From a virus (taxonomy: Duplodnaviria; Heunggongvirae; Uroviricota; Caudoviricetes), in IMG/VR virus record IMGVR_UViG_2740892014_000012: a stretch of 16,521 nucleotides of DNA; one strand, given 5' to 3'. Below the pieces are notes generated by a model that did not search any database, was not told the origin of the DNA, and saw nothing but the letters and a program-made list of their open reading frames with translations. How positions within the stretch are numbered: position 1 is the stretch's first letter; each line of letters opens with the position of its first letter. Below are positions 1 to 6,448 of this stretch, piece after piece. The position numbers and the translations under genes are program-made.

Positions 1-1143
1 CTATGCTGTTTTGATATCTACGATAATCCAGTCTTTACCACGATCATCATTGTATCGGTCGGTCATTTTTCTGGATTTATGGCCTAACAACTTTTGCGTA
101 TCCAGACCCTGTTCCCGATATAACCGTTCTGACAGAGATCGCTGCTCATGAAATGTGGGCGCAGTTCCTTGCTCCCATTTTATGCCACATTTTTCCCGGG
201 CCTTTTTAAAAGCCGTTGTCAGAGTATTTGCAGAAACCTGGTCTCCTCTGTTTGCTTGAGAGGTAGTGTGACGGTAATGGACCAGATATTTACTAACAAC
301 AGCATCCCTGCACTGAGATATAACTTCACGAAGGGTAATATTCAGAGCATCGCATTTCAGGTTAAGCGGAATAGCAAGTTTTGAACCGGTTTTTTCCTGA
401 GTAATGTGCAACATGTCGTCCCATATATCAGAGAATTTCAAATTGCAGATATCGCCTAAACGTTGTCCAGTAACAAGAGCAAGTAGCATGCCGCATTTTA
501 AATAGGGCTGCCGTCTGCTTACGCTGTCAAATATTGCCTGCCATTCGGGCAGTGACAATCTTTGGCGGTTTACTCGATTTCGCGGTTGTTTTGTTGCCTG
601 CGCTGGGTTAAATCCTGGCGGAACATGTCCTGCGTGTTGTGCTTCTTTGAAGACGTCGATCAACACCATTCTCACGACTTGCGCCATCCTGTTATGACCT
701 TCAGCCTTTACAGCATCAATTATTTCGGCAATATCAAGTGCGGTAATATCCTTGAGGTGTTGCATTCCACAATGCTCACGGAAAAGACGAATGGGTTTGC
801 CTTTTTGCCGATAGGAGTTGGGTCTTAGTTCATTATGTTGCAGCCTGTCCTCTTGGATAGAAATATATTTATCAAGCCATTCTGTCACCGTAATGTCTGA
901 GCGCCTGCCTTTCATTCTTTCCAGACGCTCATTGACGCTTAATATTTGTCTGGTACGTTGTTCAGCAATAATGGTATTTGCTTCAGTAGCAACTTGTTTT
1001 GCTTCATTCTCATCAGTTCCTAAGCTATGAAAACGACCGGATAGTGGATGTTTGTATTGCCAATATACCTTTCCGGTTCGCTTATCTAATTTGCAATATA
1101 AATTGGGTATAGAGATTTTGTGAGATCGGGGTCTAGCAGCCAT
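1..1143 (-). CDS. int: Phage integrase, tyrosine recombinase of the lambda Int family (380 aa)
   Basis: ATG at 1143..1141, stop at 3..1. N-terminus (RSHKISIPNLYCK...RTGK) and C-terminus (FHEQRSLSERLY...LLGHKS...MTDRYNDDRGKDWIIVDIK) align with lambda Int as recalled, including the R/K/H-x-x-R/H/Y catalytic residues. Overlaps xis by 11 nt, as in lambda. Confidence 0.93.
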   Translation of the reverse strand: MAARPRSHKISIPNLYCKLDKRTGKVYWQYKHPLSGRFHSLGTDENEAKQVATEANTIIAEQRTRQILSVNERLERMKGRRSDITVTEWLDKYISIQEDRLQHNELRPNSYRQKGKPIRLFREHCGMQHLKDITALDIAEIIDAVKAEGHNRMAQVVRMVLIDVFKEAQHAGHVPPGFNPAQATKQPRNRVNRQRLSLPEWQAIFDSVSRRQPYLKCGMLLALVTGQRLGDICNLKFSDIWDDMLHITQEKTGSKLAIPLNLKCDALNITLREVISQCRDAVVSKYLVHYRHTTSQANRGDQVSANTLTTAFKKAREKCGIKWEQGTAPTFHEQRSLSERLYREQGLDTQKLLGHKSRKMTDRYNDDRGKDWIIVDIKTA

Positions 1144-1369
1144 CAGCGATTATCCTTTGGAGTTTTGGGTTTGCGTTTATTGGGAGTTGCGGTTCTGCAA
1201 GCGTTCCTACAAAACGGGAATTTCGGTCAATCATCCAGTAGCGACCAACTTTTATAGCGGGTGGGGCCATCATTTTCCCTTGCGCGTATTTTTTCAGAAC
1301 TCGCTCACTTGGTGCTAAGTCCCCAAATTCTTCTTTAGCCCAGTCCTGTAAAGTGATTAGTCGAGACAT
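1133..1369 (-). CDS. xis: Excisionase (Xis-like, 78 aa)
   Basis: Lies immediately upstream of and overlapping int. ITLQDWA and PPAIKVGRYWMIDRNS resemble lambda Xis LTLQEWN and PPPVKDGREYLFHES. Strong SD (AGGAGG) a few nt upstream of the ATG. Confidence 0.82.
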   Translation of the reverse strand: MSRLITLQDWAKEEFGDLAPSERVLKKYAQGKMMAPPAIKVGRYWMIDRNSRFVGTLAEPQLPINANPKLQRIIADGC

Positions 1370-1508
1370 TTGTCCTCCTCTTAGCTGCTGAGGGAGTTTG
1401 TGACCGATATATCTGACATGATATTAAGCTCATGGCAGGTACATCTCTTGACTGGTCATAGAGATAAATTTAATGCTGAGAAATGCAGTATTGAATTTAT
1501 CAATTTTT

Positions 1509-1748
1509 CTATTTCCTGCGCATGTCACGTAACTTCTTAATGTGTTCTGCCGTTTCGATCTCTTCTGCTATCCGATCTGCATCAGCTTTATTCACAGGTT
1601 CAAAGTCATGATTAAAGCGGAACATGCTGGCGATACATGTTCTGCCTTTTCGGATGTAGTGAACTTTGTTGTGGGTAGAACGCAGGATTTTGCAGGGAGT
1701 GCCGTGGTGGTCGACGTACCAGGTGTTAGGGTCAATCACTCTGAACAT
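1509..1748 (-). CDS. Hypothetical small phage protein (79 aa)
   Basis: ORF with an AAGG SD-like motif about 7 nt upstream of the ATG; overlaps the upstream gene's stop by 17 nt, consistent with operon packing. No recognised motif. Confidence 0.5.
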   Translation of the reverse strand: MFRVIDPNTWYVDHHGTPCKILRSTHNKVHYIRKGRTCIASMFRFNHDFEPVNKADADRIAEEIETAEHIKKLRDMRRK

Positions 1749-2058
1749 TCTTGACCTTGTGTTGTGCGGATTGATATTCAGTGCTGATATTCACCTTTAT
1801 AGCGAACACCTTTACCGGTTTATCGCCAAAGTGCGGATGTGTGATTGTCTTCACTTCATATCCGTCATACGGAACATCAATTCTGCGACTGGAATCGTCG
1901 CGCTTCGGATATCCCTTTGTGATAATCAGGCGGTCATATTCCCGGAACATAATTCGCTTATTCCAGTAGTCATTACACAAGCGATACTCTTCCGTTTTCT
2001 CTCCGCGAATCATGGCATCGAAGTATTCACTTTTAACAGCAAGTTGCAGGTTAGCCAT
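1732..2058 (-). CDS. ASCH-domain protein (putative RNA-binding), about 108 aa
   Basis: Contains GEKTEEYR, an exact match to the ASCH signature GxKxxExR. The ORF track starts at a GTG (2061); the adjacent ATG at 2058..2056 overlaps the upstream gene's TGA in an ATGA arrangement, so 2058 is the more likely start. Confidence 0.55.
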   Translation of the reverse strand: MANLQLAVKSEYFDAMIRGEKTEEYRLCNDYWNKRIMFREYDRLIITKGYPKRDDSSRRIDVPYDGYEVKTITHPHFGDKPVKVFAIKVNISTEYQSAQHKVKNVQSD

Positions 2059-2279
2059 CACTTAATCCCCCTTTGTTTGCGGATAAGCTCCAGATCTTGC
2101 TGGCAACTGGCGCAAGTCCGACAACCCTGAACGGCCAGGCGTCTTCGTTCATCTATCGGATCGCCACACTCACAACAATGAGTGGCAGATACAGCCAGGT
2201 AGTTCAGGCGGCGCATTTTTATTGCTGTGTTGCGCTGTAATTCTTCTATTTCTGATGCTGAATCAATGATGTCTGCCAT
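2058..2279 (-). CDS. TraR/DksA-family C4 zinc-finger protein (73 aa)
   Basis: CECGDPIDERRRLAVQGCRTCASCQ resembles the F-plasmid TraR zinc finger (CEACGNPIPEARRKIFPGVTLCVECQ, from memory). Size is typical of phage TraR-like proteins. Confidence 0.72.
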   Translation of the reverse strand: MADIIDSASEIEELQRNTAIKMRRLNYLAVSATHCCECGDPIDERRRLAVQGCRTCASCQQDLELIRKQRGIK

Positions 2280-2331
2280 CTTTCATTAATCCCTGAACTG
2301 TTGGTTAATACGCTTGAGGGTGAATGCGAAC

Positions 2332-2356
2332 AATAAAAAAGGAGCCTGTAGCTCCC
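2332..2356 (-). terminator. Putative intrinsic terminator inside the leftward (pL) operon
   Basis: On the minus strand: a GGAGC/GCUCC stem with 5-nt loop followed by TTTTTTATTG, about 22 nt downstream of the stop of the 2378..2659 ORF. Confidence 0.5.
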
Positions 2357-2377
2357 TGATAATTTTGCTTTTCATGT

Positions 2378-2659
2378 TCATCGTTCCTTAAAGACGCCGT
2401 TTAACATGCCGATTGCCAGGCTTAAATGAGTCGGTGTGAATCCCTTCAGCGTTACCGTTTCGCGGTGCTTCTTCAGTACGCTACGGCAAATGTCATTGAC
2501 GTTTTTATCCGGAAACTGCTGTCTGACTTTTTTGATTTCAGAATTAGCCTGACGGGCAATGCTGCGAAGGGCATTTTCTTGCTGAGGTGTCACTGAACAA
2601 GCCCCATGTCGGCAAGCATAAGCACACAGAATATGAAGCCCGCTGCCAGAAAAATGCAT
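2378..2659 (-). CDS. Hypothetical small phage protein (93 aa from ATG; a GTG start giving about 70 aa is also possible)
   Basis: Minus-strand ORF in the accessory region between exo and xis. No SD before the ATG; GGGG lies 8 nt before an internal in-frame GTG. Confidence 0.45.
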   Translation of the reverse strand: MHFSGSGLHILCAYACRHGACSVTPQQENALRSIARQANSEIKKVRQQFPDKNVNDICRSVLKKHRETVTLKGFTPTHLSLAIGMLNGVFKER

Positions 2660-2669
2660 TCAGTGGTTG

Positions 2670-2861
2670 TCATACCTGGTCTCTCTCATCTGCTTCTGCT
2701 TTCGCCACCATCATTTCCAGCTTTTGTGAAAGGGATGTGGCTAACGTATGAAATTCTTCGTCTGTTTCTGCTGGTATTGGCACAAACCTGACTCCAATTT
2801 GAGCAAGGCTATGTGCCAAATCAATACTCGTTCTTAACTCAACAGGAGATGCTTTGTGCAT
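2670..2861 (-). CDS. Hypothetical small phage protein (63 aa)
   Basis: ORF with a GGGGGG SD-like motif 4 nt upstream of the ATG; same position and size class as the lambda orf60a/orf63/orf61 cluster downstream of exo. Confidence 0.5.
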   Translation of the reverse strand: MHKASPVELRTSIDLAHSLAQIGVRFVPIPAETDEEFHTLATSLSQKLEMMVAKAEADERDQV

Positions 2862-3022
2862 ACCGCCCCCCGTTTATTATTTATCTCCTCAGCCAGCCGC
2901 TGGGCTTTCAGCGGATTTCGGATAACAGAAAGACCGTGAAATACCCAGCCTCGCTTTGTAACGGAGTAGACGAAAGTGATCGCGCCTACCCGGATATTAT
3001 CGTGAGGATGGGTCATCGCCAT
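2834..3022 (-). CDS. Hypothetical small phage protein (62 aa)
   Basis: Start overlaps the 3' end of exo by 10 nt, as for the small ORF directly after exo in lambda. No motif recognised. Confidence 0.45.
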
Positions 3023-3693
3023 TGCTCTCCAAATACAAAACCAATTTCAGCCAGTGCTTCGTCCATTTTTTCGATGAACTCCGGCACCATCTCGTCAAAA
3101 CTCGCCATGTACTTTTCATCCCGCTCAACCACGACATAATGCAGGCCTTCACGCTTCATTCGTGGGTCATAGTTGGCAAAGTACCAGGCATCTTTTCGTG
3201 TCACCCACATGCTGTACTGCACCTGGGCCATGTAAGCCGACTTTATGGCCTCGAAACCACCGAGCCGGAACTTCATGAAATCCCGGGAGGTAAACGGGCA
3301 TTTCAGCTCAAGGCCATTGCCGTCACTGCATAAACCATCGGGAGAGCAGGCGGTGCGCATACTTTCGTCGCGATAGATGATCGGGGATTCAGTAACATTC
3401 ACGCCGGAAGTGAATTCAAACAGGGTTCTGGCGTCGTTCTCGTACTGTTTTCCCCACGCCAGCGCCTTAGCATTAACTTCCGGAGCCACACCGGTGCAAA
3501 CCTCAGCCAGCAGGGTGTGGAAGTAGGACATTTTCATGTCAGGCCACTTCTTTCCTGAGCGGGGCTTTGCTATCACGTTGTGAACTTCTGAAGCGGTGAT
3601 GACGCCGAGCCGTAATTTGTGCCATGCATCATCCCCCTGTTCGACAGCTCTCACGTCGATCCCGGTACGCTGCAGGATAATGTCCGGTGTCAT
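3013..3693 (-). CDS. exo: Lambda exonuclease (Red alpha), 226 aa
   Basis: Protein [40 protein letters not shown]...FVFGEQWR is near-identical to lambda Exo as recalled. ATGA start/stop overlap with bet. Confidence 0.97.
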
Positions 3694-4475
3694 GCTGCCA
3701 CCTTCTGCTCAGTGGCTTTCTGTTTCAGGAATCCAAGAGCTTTCACTGCTTCGGCCTGTGTCAGTTCTGACGATGCGCGAATGTCGCGGCGAAATATCTG
3801 GGAACAGAGCGGCAATAAGTCGTCATCCCATGTTTTGTCCAGGGCAATCAGCAGAGTGTTAATCTCCTGCATGGTTTCATCGTTAACCGGAGTGATGTCG
3901 CGTTCCGGCTGACGTTCCGCAGTGTATGCAGTATTTTCGACAATGCGCTCGGCTTCATCCTTGTCATAGATACCAGCAAATCCGAAGGCCAGACGGGCAC
4001 ACTGAATCATGGCTTTATGCCGTAACATCCGTTTGGGATGCGACTGCCACGGCCCCGTGATTTCTCTGCCTTCGCGAGTTTTGAATGGTTCGCGGCGGCA
4101 TTCATCCATCCATTCGGTAACGCAGATCGGATGATTGCGGTCTTTGCGGTAAATCCGGCACGTACATGATTCATTGTCCTGCTCAAAGTCCATGCCATCA
4201 AACTGCTGGTTTTCATTGATGATGCGGGACCAGCCATCAACGCCCACCACCGGAACGATGCCGTTCTGCTTATCAGGGAAGGCGTAAATTTCTTTCGTCC
4301 ACGGATTAAGGCCGTACTGGTTGGCGACGATCAGCAATGCGATGAACTGCGCATCGCTGGCATCACCTTTAAATGCCGTCTGACGAAGAGTGGTGATCAG
4401 TTCCTGTGGGTCGACAGAATCCATGCCGACACGTTCAGCCAGCTTCCCAGCCAGCGTTGCGAGTGCTGTACTCAT
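3690..4475 (-). CDS. bet: Red beta single-strand annealing protein (Bet), 261 aa
   Basis: [59 protein letters not shown]... is near-identical to lambda Beta as recalled. Confidence 0.97.
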
Positions 4476-4480
4476 CCGTT

Positions 4481-4777
4481 TTATACCTCTGAATCAATAT
4501 CAACATGGTGGTGAGCAATGGTTTCAACCATGTACCGGATGTGTTCTGCCATGCGCTCCTGAAACTCAACATCGTCATCAAACGCACGGGTAATGGCTTT
4601 TTTGCTGGCCCCGCAGCGTTGCAAATGATCGATGCAGAGTGATTCAAACAGGTGCTGTGGAAGACCTTTTTCCATGTCGTCTGCCAGTTCTGCCTCTTTC
4701 TCTTCACGGGCGATCTGCTGGTAGTGACGCGCCCAGCTTTGAGCCTCAAGACGATCCTGAATGTAATAAGCGTTCAT
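4481..4777 (-). CDS. gam: Gam, RecBCD inhibitor (GamS form, 98 aa)
   Basis: [54 protein letters not shown]... matches lambda GamS as recalled. Upstream in-frame sequence ...YFHSHFQEF resembles the long-Gam leader. Confidence 0.95.
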
Positions 4778-4852
4778 GGCTGAACTCCTGAAAATGGCTG
4801 TGAAAATATCGCCTGCGAAATGCCGGGCTGATTAGGTAAACAGGAAAGGGGA

Positions 4853-5143
4853 TTAGTGATTCAGGCCGTTGCCGCGTCCGTCGAGAAAAACTTCCACGAG
4901 CAAATCACGGGTATAAGTGCGCTCGATGCCGCGATGCAGATAAAGCCGTCCGCGTAAATTAGCTGATGCAGTCCAGGTACCATCTTTGTGTTTGACCAGC
5001 ATTCCTGGCATGACCGCACCGCGATTAACGGTCTGCGTTCCGTAATGTTGATGAACCATAAAAACTCCTGCCCGTAAGCTGGGCTGCTGAACATATAGAG
5101 ACTTCTGCGCGTATTCAGGCGGTGGATGGCCGCCGGTTGTCAT
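4853..5143 (-). CDS. Hypothetical protein (96 aa), first ORF downstream of pL, in the kil/cIII position
   Basis: Codon composition looks coding in this frame. No similarity recognised to lambda N, cIII or Kil as recalled. An internal start (MVHQHY...) is possible. Function unknown. Confidence 0.45.
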
Positions 5144-5334
5144 AACTAAGCCGCCTCGTTGAAGCGACTAAGGTATGAAATGTTGAGTTAATTTCAGCTG
5201 GTCACACCGACGTTCACGCGTCCGTTTCACCCCTCGCACTCCCCGAAGCCTGCTGAAATTCAAACTGCGGATCTAAGCGGTCATCGCAACGGTGAATCAG
5301 GTAGTTGCCGTATCGTTGTGTTGTTGCGATGAAC

Positions 5335-5415
5335 TTATTTAAAACTATAGTTGTTTTATCGTCAACAACAAAAGTTGTTTTATTGGTTGTTTTAGATATA
5401 ACTGGTTGTATTTAG
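5335..5415 (-). promoter_or_regulatory. pL-like promoter with OL operator cluster
   Basis: Minus strand reads GTTGTTGACGATAAAACAACTATAGTTTTAAAT: TTGACG, 17 nt, TTAAAT. This is nearly identical to the pR module on the other side of cI (GTTGTTGACTAAAAACAACCATAGTTTTAATC). Repeated GGTTGT(T/A) half-sites in both orientations at 5349..5413. Confidence 0.55.
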
Positions 5416-5505
5416 GATGGATTTATTTTGTGACTTGAATCGCATAGCGATAACTGAAGCGAGGTTATGGTGGTTTTTTTAACGGTGTGTGTGATGAGGG
5501 GAGGG

Positions 5506-5533
5506 CAAAAGAAAACCCGGCACGGTGACCGGG
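5506..5533 (-). terminator. Intrinsic terminator downstream of cI
   Basis: On the minus strand: CCCGG..CCGGG stem (5-bp GC stem, 8-nt loop) followed by TTTTCTTTTG, about 120 nt after the cI stop. Confidence 0.55.
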
Positions 5534-5654
5534 ATTCTTACGCCGTTAGGTAAAGATATTATTGCGGTGGCTTAATATTACTACCTAGAGCAAAGATAGG
5601 AATTAGTTCTTTACTGAATGAGCACAATGCCCAGTTGATAATTTTTAATTGGTA

Positions 5655-6344
5655 CTACCCATGCTTCCTATATGTCTGCGGCATGCTCCCAATAACCTTA
5701 CCGAAGATGAACACCCGGTTCATCTCGTCTTTCTCGATCGGGTCCCACGGTGAGTAGCTTTTGTTATCAGAGATGACCAGCAGCTTATCCTTCATCATTT
5801 GCAGGCGCTTTACATGGGCTGTGTCGTCGTACAGAAACGCATAGATACCATCACCGTCGAAAGATTTAACTGTGATATCAACGAACAGCAGATCACCTGG
5901 TTCGATCGTTCCTGACATGCTGTCACCACGCACGTTAATGATGCGGATATTTTCCGCCTTCCTACCATCGAACATGTGACGAGCATCGTCAAACGAGTAC
6001 TCAACCGAGCGTAGAACTTCTACAAACTCACGGTTGATGACTCCCGGCCCAGCACTGACTTCTATATCAAGAACGTCAATCTTGAAGTATTTGGAATGGC
6101 TGACAGTTGATTGTATTGGTTGCACTGTACTGTCTGACATATTTCCAACGCCAGAAGATAACCATTCTGCGCGCACACCCAAAGCGTTCGCGATCTCCAC
6201 GATTTTAGTTGTTTGATTAGCTTTCCCTGTTTCGATTTTCTGAATAGCAGCCTGGCTAACCCCGACCAAATCCCCAAGCGCCTTTTGTGTAAGGCCTCGC
6301 GCTAATCTGGCTTCTTTAAGTCTTTCTGAGAGTGTTGTTTTCAT
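5655..6344 (-). CDS. cI: cI-type prophage repressor with N-terminal HTH and C-terminal LexA-like S24 autopeptidase domain (229 aa from the proposed start)
   Basis: HTH LTQKALGDLVGVSQAAIQKIETGK; S24 motifs VRGDSMSGTIEPGDLLFVD (Ser) and HVKRL (Lys); candidate Ala-Gly cleavage site in VSAGPG. The ORF-track start at 6410 lies inside the operator/promoter; the ATG at 6344..6342 (MKTTLSERLKEA...) sits 6 nt after a TACATT -10-like hexamer, suggesting a leaderless pRM-type transcript. Confidence 0.85.
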   Translation of the reverse strand: MKTTLSERLKEARLARGLTQKALGDLVGVSQAAIQKIETGKANQTTKIVEIANALGVRAEWLSSGVGNMSDSTVQPIQSTVSHSKYFKIDVLDIEVSAGPGVINREFVEVLRSVEYSFDDARHMFDGRKAENIRIINVRGDSMSGTIEPGDLLFVDITVKSFDGDGIYAFLYDDTAHVKRLQMMKDKLLVISDNKSYSPWDPIEKDEMNRVFIFGKVIGSMPQTYRKHG

Positions 6345-6448
6345 AGTCCAAATGTACAACCAAGGTTTTATTCCATCAAACGAAAATGGTTGTTGACTAA
6401 AAACAACCATAGTTTTAATCTTGATTCAAATTAACCACGGAGGTTGTT
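6345..6448. promoter_or_regulatory. Divergent OR / pR / pRM region
   Basis: Perfect 9-bp inverted repeat ATGGTTGTT-N7-AACAACCAT (6386..6410) overlapping a TTGACT -35 (6393..6398), 17-nt spacer, TAATCT -10 (6416..6421). GGAGG SD at 6437..6441, 7 nt before the cro ATG. Additional GGTTGTA half-site at 6355..6361 (minus orientation). Confidence 0.6.

Follow-up and report, generated by a model that had tools for sequence, protein, structure and literature searches.

An exo-xis accessory region of phage 21/lambda type that combines the lambda block of small genes with an ASCH-like and a DUF4222 gene

In phage lambda, the part of the leftward early operon between exo and xis carries a series of small accessory genes. 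Papers devoted to this region, two solved structures and a study of the mechanism of Orf73 are available, and the genes of the region are known to influence the induction of Stx prophages in pathogenic E. coli. The lambda genes orf60a, orf63 and orf61 are dispensable (PMC10695390), but their deletion or over-expression alters the lysis-lysogeny decision and prophage induction (PMC6213356, PMC5575149, PMC3824215). Lambda Orf73 binds to the secondary channel of RNA polymerase in a TraR-like manner. In the absence of ppGpp it inhibits the promoters of rRNA and ribosomal-protein genes and slows host growth, and it increases the burst size about 4-fold (PMC9239242). The published orf73 phenotypes are conflicting, as one laboratory reported a pro-lysogenic effect with lower yield while another found a higher yield. 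PMC8614690 describes translated peptides of 31 and 7 residues in the corresponding part of lambda.

The window, i.e. the whole stretch of 16,521 nucleotides that was analysed, comes from a virus of the Caudoviricetes (IMG/VR record IMGVR_UViG_2740892014_000012). Its interval 1509-3022 is the lambdoid exo-xis accessory region and is as such already known; we are highly confident that it belongs to a temperate phage of the phage 21/lambda type. Over positions 1370-3022, the DNA is 99.7% identical to phage ev207 (NC_049949) and 97% identical to phage 21 (OL657228), two members of the genus Jouyvirus which have the same arrangement int-xis-DUF4222-ASCH-TraR-orf61-orf63-orf60a-exo as the window. 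At the flanks, the exo locus is labelled as exonuclease in the ev207, phage 21 and lambda records, and the counterparts of xis and int are labelled as excisionase and integrase in the phage 21 record. The immunity and replication regions of the window are closer to PhiR47_2 and 4A7 than to ev207 or phage 21, and the immunity region also differs from that of lambda and has no obvious N gene. Among 5,426 complete E. coli genomes, 739 contain at least 80% of the interval, and 3,656 carry parts of it. Identical copies occur in E. coli prophages integrated beside icd, including one 100% identical copy which lies next to this gene. This is a textbook lambdoid region, which has been annotated by NCBI's pipeline and is identical in hundreds of E. 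coli prophages.

Two parts can be distinguished in the region. The right half (2058-3022) is the lambda block of orf60a (DUF1317), orf63 (DUF1382), orf61 and orf73. It occupies the same slot as in lambda, with the same order and the same overlaps from orf60a to orf73, and its proteins are 89-98% identical to their lambda counterparts (orf60a 98%, orf63 89%, orf61 94-95%, orf73 90%), while the 31-aa ORF is 100% identical. The left half (1509-2058) carries an ASCH-like and a DUF4222 gene in place of lambda ea22, ea8.5 and orf55, which are absent from the window. The first-pass annotation had assigned the entire cluster to the position of the lambda ea genes; this applies to the left half, while the right half is lambda's own orf60a-orf63-orf61-orf73. 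The conserved block is common to the window, lambda and Stx phages. We compared 83 loci (3 phage records and 80 IMG/VR contigs), most of which have the order exo, orf60a, orf63, orf61, 31-aa ORF, orf73. A few loci are devoid of orf63 or orf61, and the modules downstream of orf73 vary.

Table 1. [quoted passage not shown]
Feature	Position	Strand	Basis or remark
int	1-1143		after xis
xis	1133..1369	-	downstream flank; Pfam Exc and phrog_629
Imperfect palindrome, 39 nt	1463..1501	.	within the 139-nt gap from the DUF4222 gene to xis
DUF4222 protein (orfA), 79 aa	1509..1748	-	Pfam DUF4222 (PF13973), 68.5 bits (cut-off 27)
ASCH-like (PUA-fold) protein, 108 aa	1732..2058	-	predicted fold and GxKxxExR motif
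orf73 homologue, TraR-family C4 zinc finger, 73 aa	2058..2279	-	Pfam zf-dskA_traR (PF01258), phrog_54
7-aa ORF (MKDGRHH)	2263..2286	-	translation; overlaps orf73 start
31-aa ORF	2286..2381	-	100% identical in lambda
Terminator-like hairpin with U-run	2339..2357	-	pattern scan; inside 31-aa ORF
orf61 core, 71 aa	2378..2593	-	phrog_303, E 2e-39
Candidate 27-aa hydrophobic micro-ORF (MTTTECIFLAAGFIFCVLMLADMGLVQ)	2590..2673	-	conservation and codon-position bias
orf63 homologue (DUF1382), 63 aa	2670..2861	-	Pfam DUF1382, 99.8 bits
orf60a homologue (DUF1317), 60 aa	2834..3016	-	Pfam DUF1317, 131.6 bits
exo	3013..3693	-	upstream flank, same operon; Pfam YqaJ, 105 bits
Probable pL-like leftward early promoter/operator	5339..5369	-	duplicated sequence module

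Six small, partly overlapping ORFs on the minus strand (1509-1748, 1732-2058/2061, 2058-2279, 2378-2659, 2670-2861 and 2834-3022) are densely packed, just as the first-pass annotation had described them, and their stop/start overlaps are of the ATGA, GTGA or TGATG type. All six are real genes. Each of them has a PHROG match (E 1e-25 to 1e-51), and the Pfam cut-offs are exceeded for DUF1317, DUF1382, DUF4222 and zf-dskA_traR. NCBIfam yielded TraR-type models only, all under cut-off, with no match for the other small proteins, and Rfam reported no RNA family, either for the whole window at gathering thresholds or for 1300-5700 at E ≤ 1. Four of the ORFs had been listed as having no recognizable motif and as candidates for unknown proteins. 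Three of these four pass Pfam (the DUF4222, DUF1382 and DUF1317 proteins), and the fourth, orf61, which is the sole ORF without a Pfam family, belongs to the lambda orf61 family (phrog_303). Profile searches thus place the unassigned ORFs into the well-known lambda orf60a, orf63 and orf61 families.

For orf60a, the 60-aa version was chosen by both PGAP and the lambda annotation, and its ATG overlaps the exo stop (ATGA); the frame is open up to an alternative ATG at 3022, which would give 62 aa. Over 28 nt, orf63 and orf60a overlap just as they do in lambda, and the orf63 product matches the NMR structure of lambda Orf63 (8DSB, E 2e-31). A profile search with orf60a against PDB sequences gave no credible match. 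Variants of orf63, which come from a small set of near-identical sequences, have no third-position excess. Such an excess was not seen for orf60a either, with less certainty; the alignment is noisy and 29 of 38 sequences are intact.

The 93-aa ORF, which extends to 2659, is the orf61 frame lengthened upstream, and it more probably represents a 71-aa gene, as annotated by PGAP and in the phage 21 record. This orf61 core starts with GTG in the window and with ATG in most relatives (ATG in 42 homologues, GTG in 17, no other codon). It is intact in the window, while the lambda copy is frameshifted and truncated (PMC8614690), so that the identity to lambda is found in two frames; in ev207 the gene is truncated by a 4-nt deletion. 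In certain relatives, a different N-terminus is fused to the same 70-residue core. Some NCBI records use the name "cell division protein ZapA". With 16.9 bits against a Pfam cut-off of 23.8 we regard this as an over-annotation, of which the sub-threshold match is probably the source. Ankyrin-repeat matches of the core (PDB profile search, E 1.5e-5, no domain passing) could be attributed to a short TPxHLxxA-like motif resemblance, and the search against PDB sequences gave nothing credible.

Upstream of the core, a 27-aa ORF fits precisely between two genes. Its start codon and the stop of orf63 share an ATGA, and its stop codon TGA and the start of the orf61 core share a GTGA. Of 59 unique homologous sequences, 58 keep the ORF open and with a start codon. 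In this frame, variants are distributed 5/4/13 over codon positions 1/2/3 (P = 0.012), and 12 are synonymous while 10 are non-synonymous. In the overlapping first 22 codons of the 93-aa frame, only 2 variants are synonymous and 13 are non-synonymous. Judged from these variant patterns, the 27-aa ORF probably takes the place of codons 1-22 of the 93-aa ORF. The predicted product is strongly hydrophobic (GRAVY 1.62) and is labelled "hypothetical protein" on 981 contigs. It may be a membrane micro-peptide whose translation is coupled to that of its neighbours orf63 and orf61. The 179 phage matches to 2378-2700 all have identities of 93-99%, and selection tests are therefore weak in this segment. 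A contig scan for orf61 relatives mostly picked up lambda spike-in contamination of unrelated genomes and did not widen the diversity.

The synonymous and non-synonymous counts at the beginning of the 93-aa ORF (codons 1-22) would also fit a more general doubt, namely that several of the six ORFs may be chance ORFs or decayed remnants rather than genes in the given frames. The frameshifted orf61 of lambda and ev207-type phages points in the same direction, as does the lack of a third-position excess in orf63 and, less surely, in orf60a. We regard this as possible but as the less probable reading, because there are strong family matches for all six ORFs, the structure of lambda Orf63 has been solved, and translation of these ORFs in lambda is reported from ribosome profiling. 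In addition, third-position bias is clear in orf73, exo and the DUF4222 gene, and the ASCH-like family comprises 1,203 diverged representative clusters.

The count of six is in fact too low, as the 27-aa, 31-aa and 7-aa ORFs had been overlooked. The 31-aa ORF, whose start codon shares an ATGA with the stop of orf61, is the same as the lambda peptide orf2313 of 31 residues, which is known from ribosome profiling. It is intact in 20 of 20 unique sequences and is shortened to 29 aa in many relatives; third-position bias is absent (4/7/6). The 7-aa ORF is probably the lambda 7-aa peptide orf2311. The RNA of 2322-2366, which includes the terminator-like hairpin, folds with -10.2 kcal/mol (z = -2.5), but terminator-like and promoter-like sites are no more frequent in 1100-3200 than expected by chance. 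The palindrome between the DUF4222 gene and xis folds best as plus-strand RNA (-17.7 kcal/mol, z = -4.2), where a T-run follows it; on the coding strand its fold is only weak (-8.4).

The proposal of a TraR/DksA-type zinc finger is confirmed for orf73 (zf-dskA_traR, 36.0 bits against a Pfam cut-off of 24.9). Its assignment to a class that binds RNA polymerase also holds, since lambda Orf73, from which the window protein differs by seven substitutions, reprograms the host polymerase and raises phage yield (PMC9239242). The protein aligns end to end with the F-plasmid TraR chains 5W1S/6N57. It has in common with lambda Orf73 and TraR the DxxDxA motif at residues 3-8 (D3-I-I-D6-S-A8), CxxC-x17-CxxC (C35, C38, C56 and C59, corresponding to C37, C40, C58 and C61 of TraR) and the Arg pair (R46/R47, equivalent to R48/R49 of TraR). 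Two further cysteines, which are typical of lambda Orf73, are found as well (C36/C53, at TraR positions 38 and 55). All of these are described as lambda Orf73 features in PMC9239242. The DxxDxA motif reaches the active site of RNA polymerase and, according to the same paper, is needed in lambda Orf73. As all functional residues are retained at 90% identity, we infer that window Orf73 works like lambda Orf73. The full-length match to NCBIfam TIGR02419 (C4_traR_proteo) scores 55.1 bits and thus slightly under the naming threshold of 59.7. This is not counted against TraR membership, because the 90%-identical lambda Orf73 has been experimentally validated.

While the TraR zinc finger passes its Pfam threshold, the ASCH domain named in the first-pass annotation does not: Pfam ASCH (PF04266) matches residues 6-28 with 14.3 bits against 21.2, and it is below cut-off in every family member scanned. 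However, the predicted fold and the motif make the protein ASCH-like. ASCH is also the commonest sub-threshold match, being obtained for 18 of 34 close relatives and for 18 of 37 distant ones (best E 0.0012). The GxKxxExR signature of ASCH, as defined in PMC6803910, is represented by G19-E-K21-T-E-E24-Y-R26. In relatives that are 36-54% identical, K21 never varies, and the conservation of G19, E24 and R26 is at least 90%. The predicted fold is a PUA-like beta-barrel in which a helix lies between the first two strands. The family profile had only chance matches to PDB sequences, with no ASCH entry, and because it reaches no solved ASCH structure the assignment rests on fold and motif. The gene overlaps the orf73 stop with its ATG by 1 nt, and the last ~15 residues of the protein are a lineage-specific tail. 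Compared to known ASCH proteins (E. faecalis 3IUW, P. horikoshii PH0355 2Z0T, E. coli YqfB 9KYF and Z. mobilis ZmASCH), the window protein is a minimal version of ~93 residues, with similarity under the Pfam threshold. YqfB has Thr where the GxKxxExR motif has Glu and ac4C-amidohydrolase activity should therefore not be assumed for the ASCH-like protein. The modelled fold suggests that it would bind or process RNA or a nucleotide via the GxKxxExR pocket.

The DUF4222 gene overlaps the ASCH-like gene by 17 nt. RgdR (ECs1581), a prophage-encoded transcription regulator of type III secretion in E. coli O157:H7, is the single studied member of this family (82 bits in Pfam). RgdR and orfA are both small, basic and prophage-borne, but RgdR has 99 aa and is located in a P4-like element, while orfA has 79 aa and is located in the exo-xis region, and the two are only 24% identical over 68 residues. 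The pairwise alignment opens at RgdR Y24, equivalent to orfA Y11. Counting back ungapped, the RGD tripeptide (residues 20-22), which has been linked to RgdR activity, falls opposite P7-N8-T9 of orfA. By sequence comparison, orfA is a DUF4222 family member and not an RgdR orthologue. A profile search against PDB sequences gave nothing credible for this family. From the predicted structure and the family, the protein may be a small RgdR-like regulatory co-factor on an SH3/Tudor-like barrel.

A pattern scan revealed no minus-strand promoter-like site inside 1100-3200. A 30-nt module, GTTGTTGAC-N2-3-AAAACAACYATAGTTTTAA, occurs in two divergent copies, where none is expected by chance. The plus-strand copy at 6389-6418 stands before a cro-like gene, and the minus-strand copy (Table 1) is, from its sequence, probably the promoter that drives the operon holding the cluster. 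The cluster would then lie distally in the leftward early operon, with transcription probably running from the pL-like promoter through kil, gam, bet and exo into the cluster and on to xis and int. The small genes are linked by overlapping stop and start codons, which makes coupled translation probable. No recognizable N gene was found between the pL-like promoter and kil in the window, and terminator-like hairpins are located at 4910-4894 and 2357-2339, between that promoter and the end of the cluster. An HK022 put-like element was considered but is unsupported, as the leader from the pL-like promoter to kil has no unusual RNA structure (z = -0.3). Overall, a conserved block of orf60a, orf63, candidate 27-aa micro-ORF, orf61 (71-aa core), 31-aa ORF, 7-aa ORF and orf73 is followed by a swappable module of ASCH-like and DUF4222 genes in the slot of lambda ea22/ea8.5/orf55.

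This position at the far end of the operon beside xis, and the exchange of the module independently of the conserved block, may be taken to indicate that the DUF4222 and ASCH-like genes serve lysogenic conversion, being expressed from the resident prophage and not during the lytic cycle. RgdR, which resides in a cryptic prophage-like element, indeed acts on host LEE1 and motility in a lysogen-like state. Nevertheless we consider this unlikely, given that the coding strand has no promoter-like site of its own in 1100-3200, that the module genes overlap orf73 and each other as on one early transcript, and that orfA resembles RgdR so distantly and is devoid of the RGD motif.

The early annotation had also suggested functions in host takeover or anti-defence. 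The first part stands insofar as these are accessory, non-essential early genes which act on the host, while the anti-defence role is unsupported. One could see the cluster, or at least the ASCH-like and DUF4222 module, as an anti-defence island which neutralizes host immunity, since the proteins are small and non-essential and the slot is accessory, mosaic and early-expressed, with modules swapped among phages. PADLOC, with models that cover defence systems and not anti-defence proteins, matched none of the seven small proteins, and our literature search retrieved no report of such a role for the cluster families. Furthermore, the lambda orthologues affect the lysis-lysogeny decision, host growth and transcription in hosts without special defence systems, and the only characterized DUF4222 protein is a transcription regulator. 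An anti-defence island is very improbable.

We may speculate, though with little confidence, that the cluster is a multi-pronged kit of tiny proteins aimed at the host transcription machinery, with more genes than have been annotated. Orf73 would be its known component on the secondary channel of RNA polymerase, and the ASCH-like protein would act on RNA. To the knowledge of this well-covered region our analysis makes two small additions. One is that the ASCH-like and DUF4222 genes form independent cassettes in the slot of ea22/ea8.5/orf55. The other is the codon-position evidence that 2590-2673 holds a 27-aa frame and not an N-terminal extension of Orf61. If this is true, the 93-aa "Orf61" of Stx-phage studies would be two genes, and the 27-aa peptide might account for phenotypes of "Orf61" deletion, among them the reduced adsorption of Phi24B.

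The left third of the window carries every gene on the minus strand, and the six small ORFs are found at the coordinates assigned by the first-pass annotation. The genes are tightly connected: exo and orf60a share an ATGA stop/start overlap, orf60a and orf63 overlap by 28 nt, orf73 and the ASCH-like gene meet at TGATG, and the ASCH-like and DUF4222 genes overlap by 17 nt. All six ORFs match phage protein families (PHROG E-values 1e-25 to 1e-51) and, judged by these matches, they are real genes rather than chance ORFs. Four had been described as lacking a recognisable motif, which is incorrect, as four of the six exceed curated Pfam cut-offs (DUF4222, 68.5 bits; zf-dskA_traR, 36.0 bits; DUF1382, 99.8 bits; DUF1317, 131.6 bits).

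Features of the window and their lambda counterparts (protein identity)
Feature	Position	Strand	Remark	Lambda counterpart
int	1-1143	-		
xis	1133-1369	-		
DUF4222 gene	1509-1748	-		
ASCH-like gene	1732-2058	-		
orf73 (TraR-like)	2058-2279	-		'orf73', 90%
7-aa ORF	2263-2286	-		
31-aa ORF	2286-2381	-	in the 2280-2377 'gap'	31-aa ORF, 100%
orf61 (93-aa ORF)	2378-2593 or to 2659	-		orf61 region, frameshifted after ~residue 44, 94-95%
27-aa ORF	2590-2673	-	strongly hydrophobic (GRAVY 1.62)	
orf63 (63 aa)	2670-2861	-		orf63, 89%
orf60a (62/60 aa)	2834-3016/3022	-		orf60a, 98%
exo	3013-3693	-	followed by bet, gam	
kil-like ORF	4853-5143			
pL-like module	5339-5369	-	faces kil, gam, bet, exo and the cluster	
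LexA-type repressor gene	5655-6410		HTH_3 + Peptidase_S24	
pR-like module	6389-6418	+	in front of cro-like gene	
Adhesin gene	9252-13517	+	1,421 aa	
Hydrolase gene	13554-14597	-	BD-FAE / Abhydrolase_3	

The description was correct; the cluster is a region that is already known and annotated and has a wide distribution. In the literature it is called the exo-xis region, a block conserved between lambda and Shiga-toxin phages, with variable genes behind it (PMC8614690). At the DNA level, phage ev207 shows 99.7% identity to 1370-3022 and phage 21 shows 97%, both records having the same gene order; full or partial matches occur in 293 phage records. Among 5,426 complete E. coli genomes, 739 contain at least 80% of the interval and 3,656 contain parts of it; a 100% identical copy, fully annotated by NCBI's pipeline, resides in a prophage beside icd. 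In the lambda RefSeq record (NC_001416), orf73 (30395-30613) and the 31-aa ORF are not annotated.

A 30-nt promoter/operator module occurs in two divergent copies, which flank the repressor gene; a terminator-like hairpin follows this gene. Because the pL-like copy faces the cluster and no promoter-like site was found on the coding strand within 1100-3200, the cluster would most simply form the distal end of an early operon read leftwards, as it does in lambda. No N-like gene was seen from the pL-like site to the kil-like ORF, and this leader showed neither unusual structure nor an Rfam match. A 39-nt palindrome (1463-1501, region 1455-1512) lies in the gap that separates the DUF4222 gene from xis. 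Strong folding is seen only for plus-strand RNA (-17.7 kcal/mol, z = -4.2); a T-run follows, and the element looks like the terminator of a transcript that would run antisense to the early-left operon. We know of no such transcript.

The window Orf73 has retained D3xxD6xA8, a C4 finger (C35/C38/C56/C59), two extra cysteines at the equivalents of TraR 38 and 55, and an Arg pair equivalent to TraR R48/R49, all of which are shared with lambda Orf73. The lambda protein occupies the DksA/TraR site on RNA polymerase and, without ppGpp, inhibits rrnB P1 (IC50 ~50 nM); its effects include slower host growth and a ~4-fold higher phage yield, and the substitutions D3N and D6N weaken it (PMC9239242). This contact with RNA polymerase is the sole biochemically established step, and by analogy to the lambda orthologue the window protein would act likewise. 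The window Orf63 matches the NMR structure of lambda Orf63 (8DSB), a dimer of intertwined subunits whose fold is found only in temperate phages (PMC10869804). For Orf60a and Orf61 there are models only: a beta-sheet DNA-binding domain for the former and, over residues 24-93, a homeodomain-like bundle of three helices for the latter (PMC8614690). Genes of the block are non-essential (PMC10695390) and affect both lysogenisation and prophage induction (PMC3824215, PMC6213356, PMC5575149). The cluster probably encodes small early proteins, non-essential and translationally coupled, through which host physiology and the balance between lysis and lysogeny are tuned. For the anti-defence function that had been suggested, our analysis yielded no support.

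In 83 loci anchored on orf73 we scored the gene that follows it. The ASCH-like gene is accompanied by DUF4222 in about 22 loci and occurs without it in about 9, while about 12 carry ea22 with DUF4222 and the remainder ea22 with or without ea8.5 and orf55, or orf55 alone. Since the combinations vary, the ASCH-like and DUF4222 genes are, by this comparison, independent cassettes swapped at gene boundaries. Such exchange is usual in lambdoid mosaics.

The ASCH assignment holds only in part. The Pfam match is sub-threshold (14.3 versus 21.2 bits), but the best Foldseek matches are ASCH proteins and the signature motif GxKxxExR (PMC6803910) is present as G19, K21, E24 and R26, being the most conserved part of the family (1,203 representative clusters). 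We thus accept the protein as ASCH-like at the level of predicted fold and motif, not as a Pfam-certified member; it may bind RNA or a nucleotide. The one studied DUF4222 protein is RgdR of E. coli O157:H7, an activator of LEE1 and repressor of motility whose DNA binding is weak and non-specific (PMC3378721, PMC10877973). The window protein, only 24% identical and without the RGD motif of RgdR, may be a co-regulator.

Elsewhere in the window, a low-GC insert directly after replication gene P holds the gene for an inverse autotransporter (an adhesin of the intimin/invasin type; IAT_beta, 338 bits; Big_1 and Invasin_D3 repeats), which is likely a lysogenic-conversion cargo gene. It is adjoined on the opposite strand by an alpha/beta-hydrolase gene, whose product is an esterase also annotated in phage 4A7.

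Ribosome profiling of lambda, as reported in PMC8614690, revealed translated 31-aa and 7-aa peptides in the block, to which the 31-aa ORF and probably the 7-aa ORF of the window correspond. As the 31-aa ORF showed no third-position codon bias and contains a terminator-like hairpin (2357-2339), its conservation may be partly at the RNA level.

Overlaps of the ATGA and GTGA type tie the 27-aa ORF to its neighbours orf63 and orf61, and the ORF is intact in 58 of 59 unique homologous sequences. It also exists in lambda, and some records list it merely as 'hypothetical protein'. Its variants are distributed 5/4/13 over codon positions 1/2/3 (12 synonymous, 10 non-synonymous; P = 0.012), whereas the first 22 codons of the overlapping 93-aa frame have 2 synonymous versus 13 non-synonymous changes. 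This pattern speaks for the 27-aa frame rather than for that N-terminal stretch of the 93-aa ORF. In addition, the start codon of a 71-aa Orf61 is only ATG or GTG in the 59 sequences, the 71-aa form is annotated by PGAP and in the phage 21 record, some relatives join the same 70-residue core to another N-terminus, and the structured region described by Donaldson covers residues 24-93 (PMC8614690). The '93-aa' ORF therefore probably represents a 27-aa micro-ORF plus a 71-aa Orf61, with moderate evidence, as all available sequences are 93-99% identical.

Frameshifts truncate orf61 in lambda (+1 nt) and in ev207-type phages (-4 nt), and thus, from these sequences, the gene is decaying in some lineages. 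Some NCBI records (e.g. NC_004913) name the protein 'cell division protein ZapA', probably an over-annotation, as the Pfam match is sub-threshold (16.9 versus 23.8 bits). Matches to orf61 in contigs from unrelated genera (Shewanella, Pseudomonas, Paenibacillus, Kitasatospora, others) often carry the lambda frameshift, some on contigs of ~48 kb, and look like lambda spike-in contamination of public assemblies. What remains of value in the finding is the 27-aa micro-ORF, together with the revised annotation of orf61.
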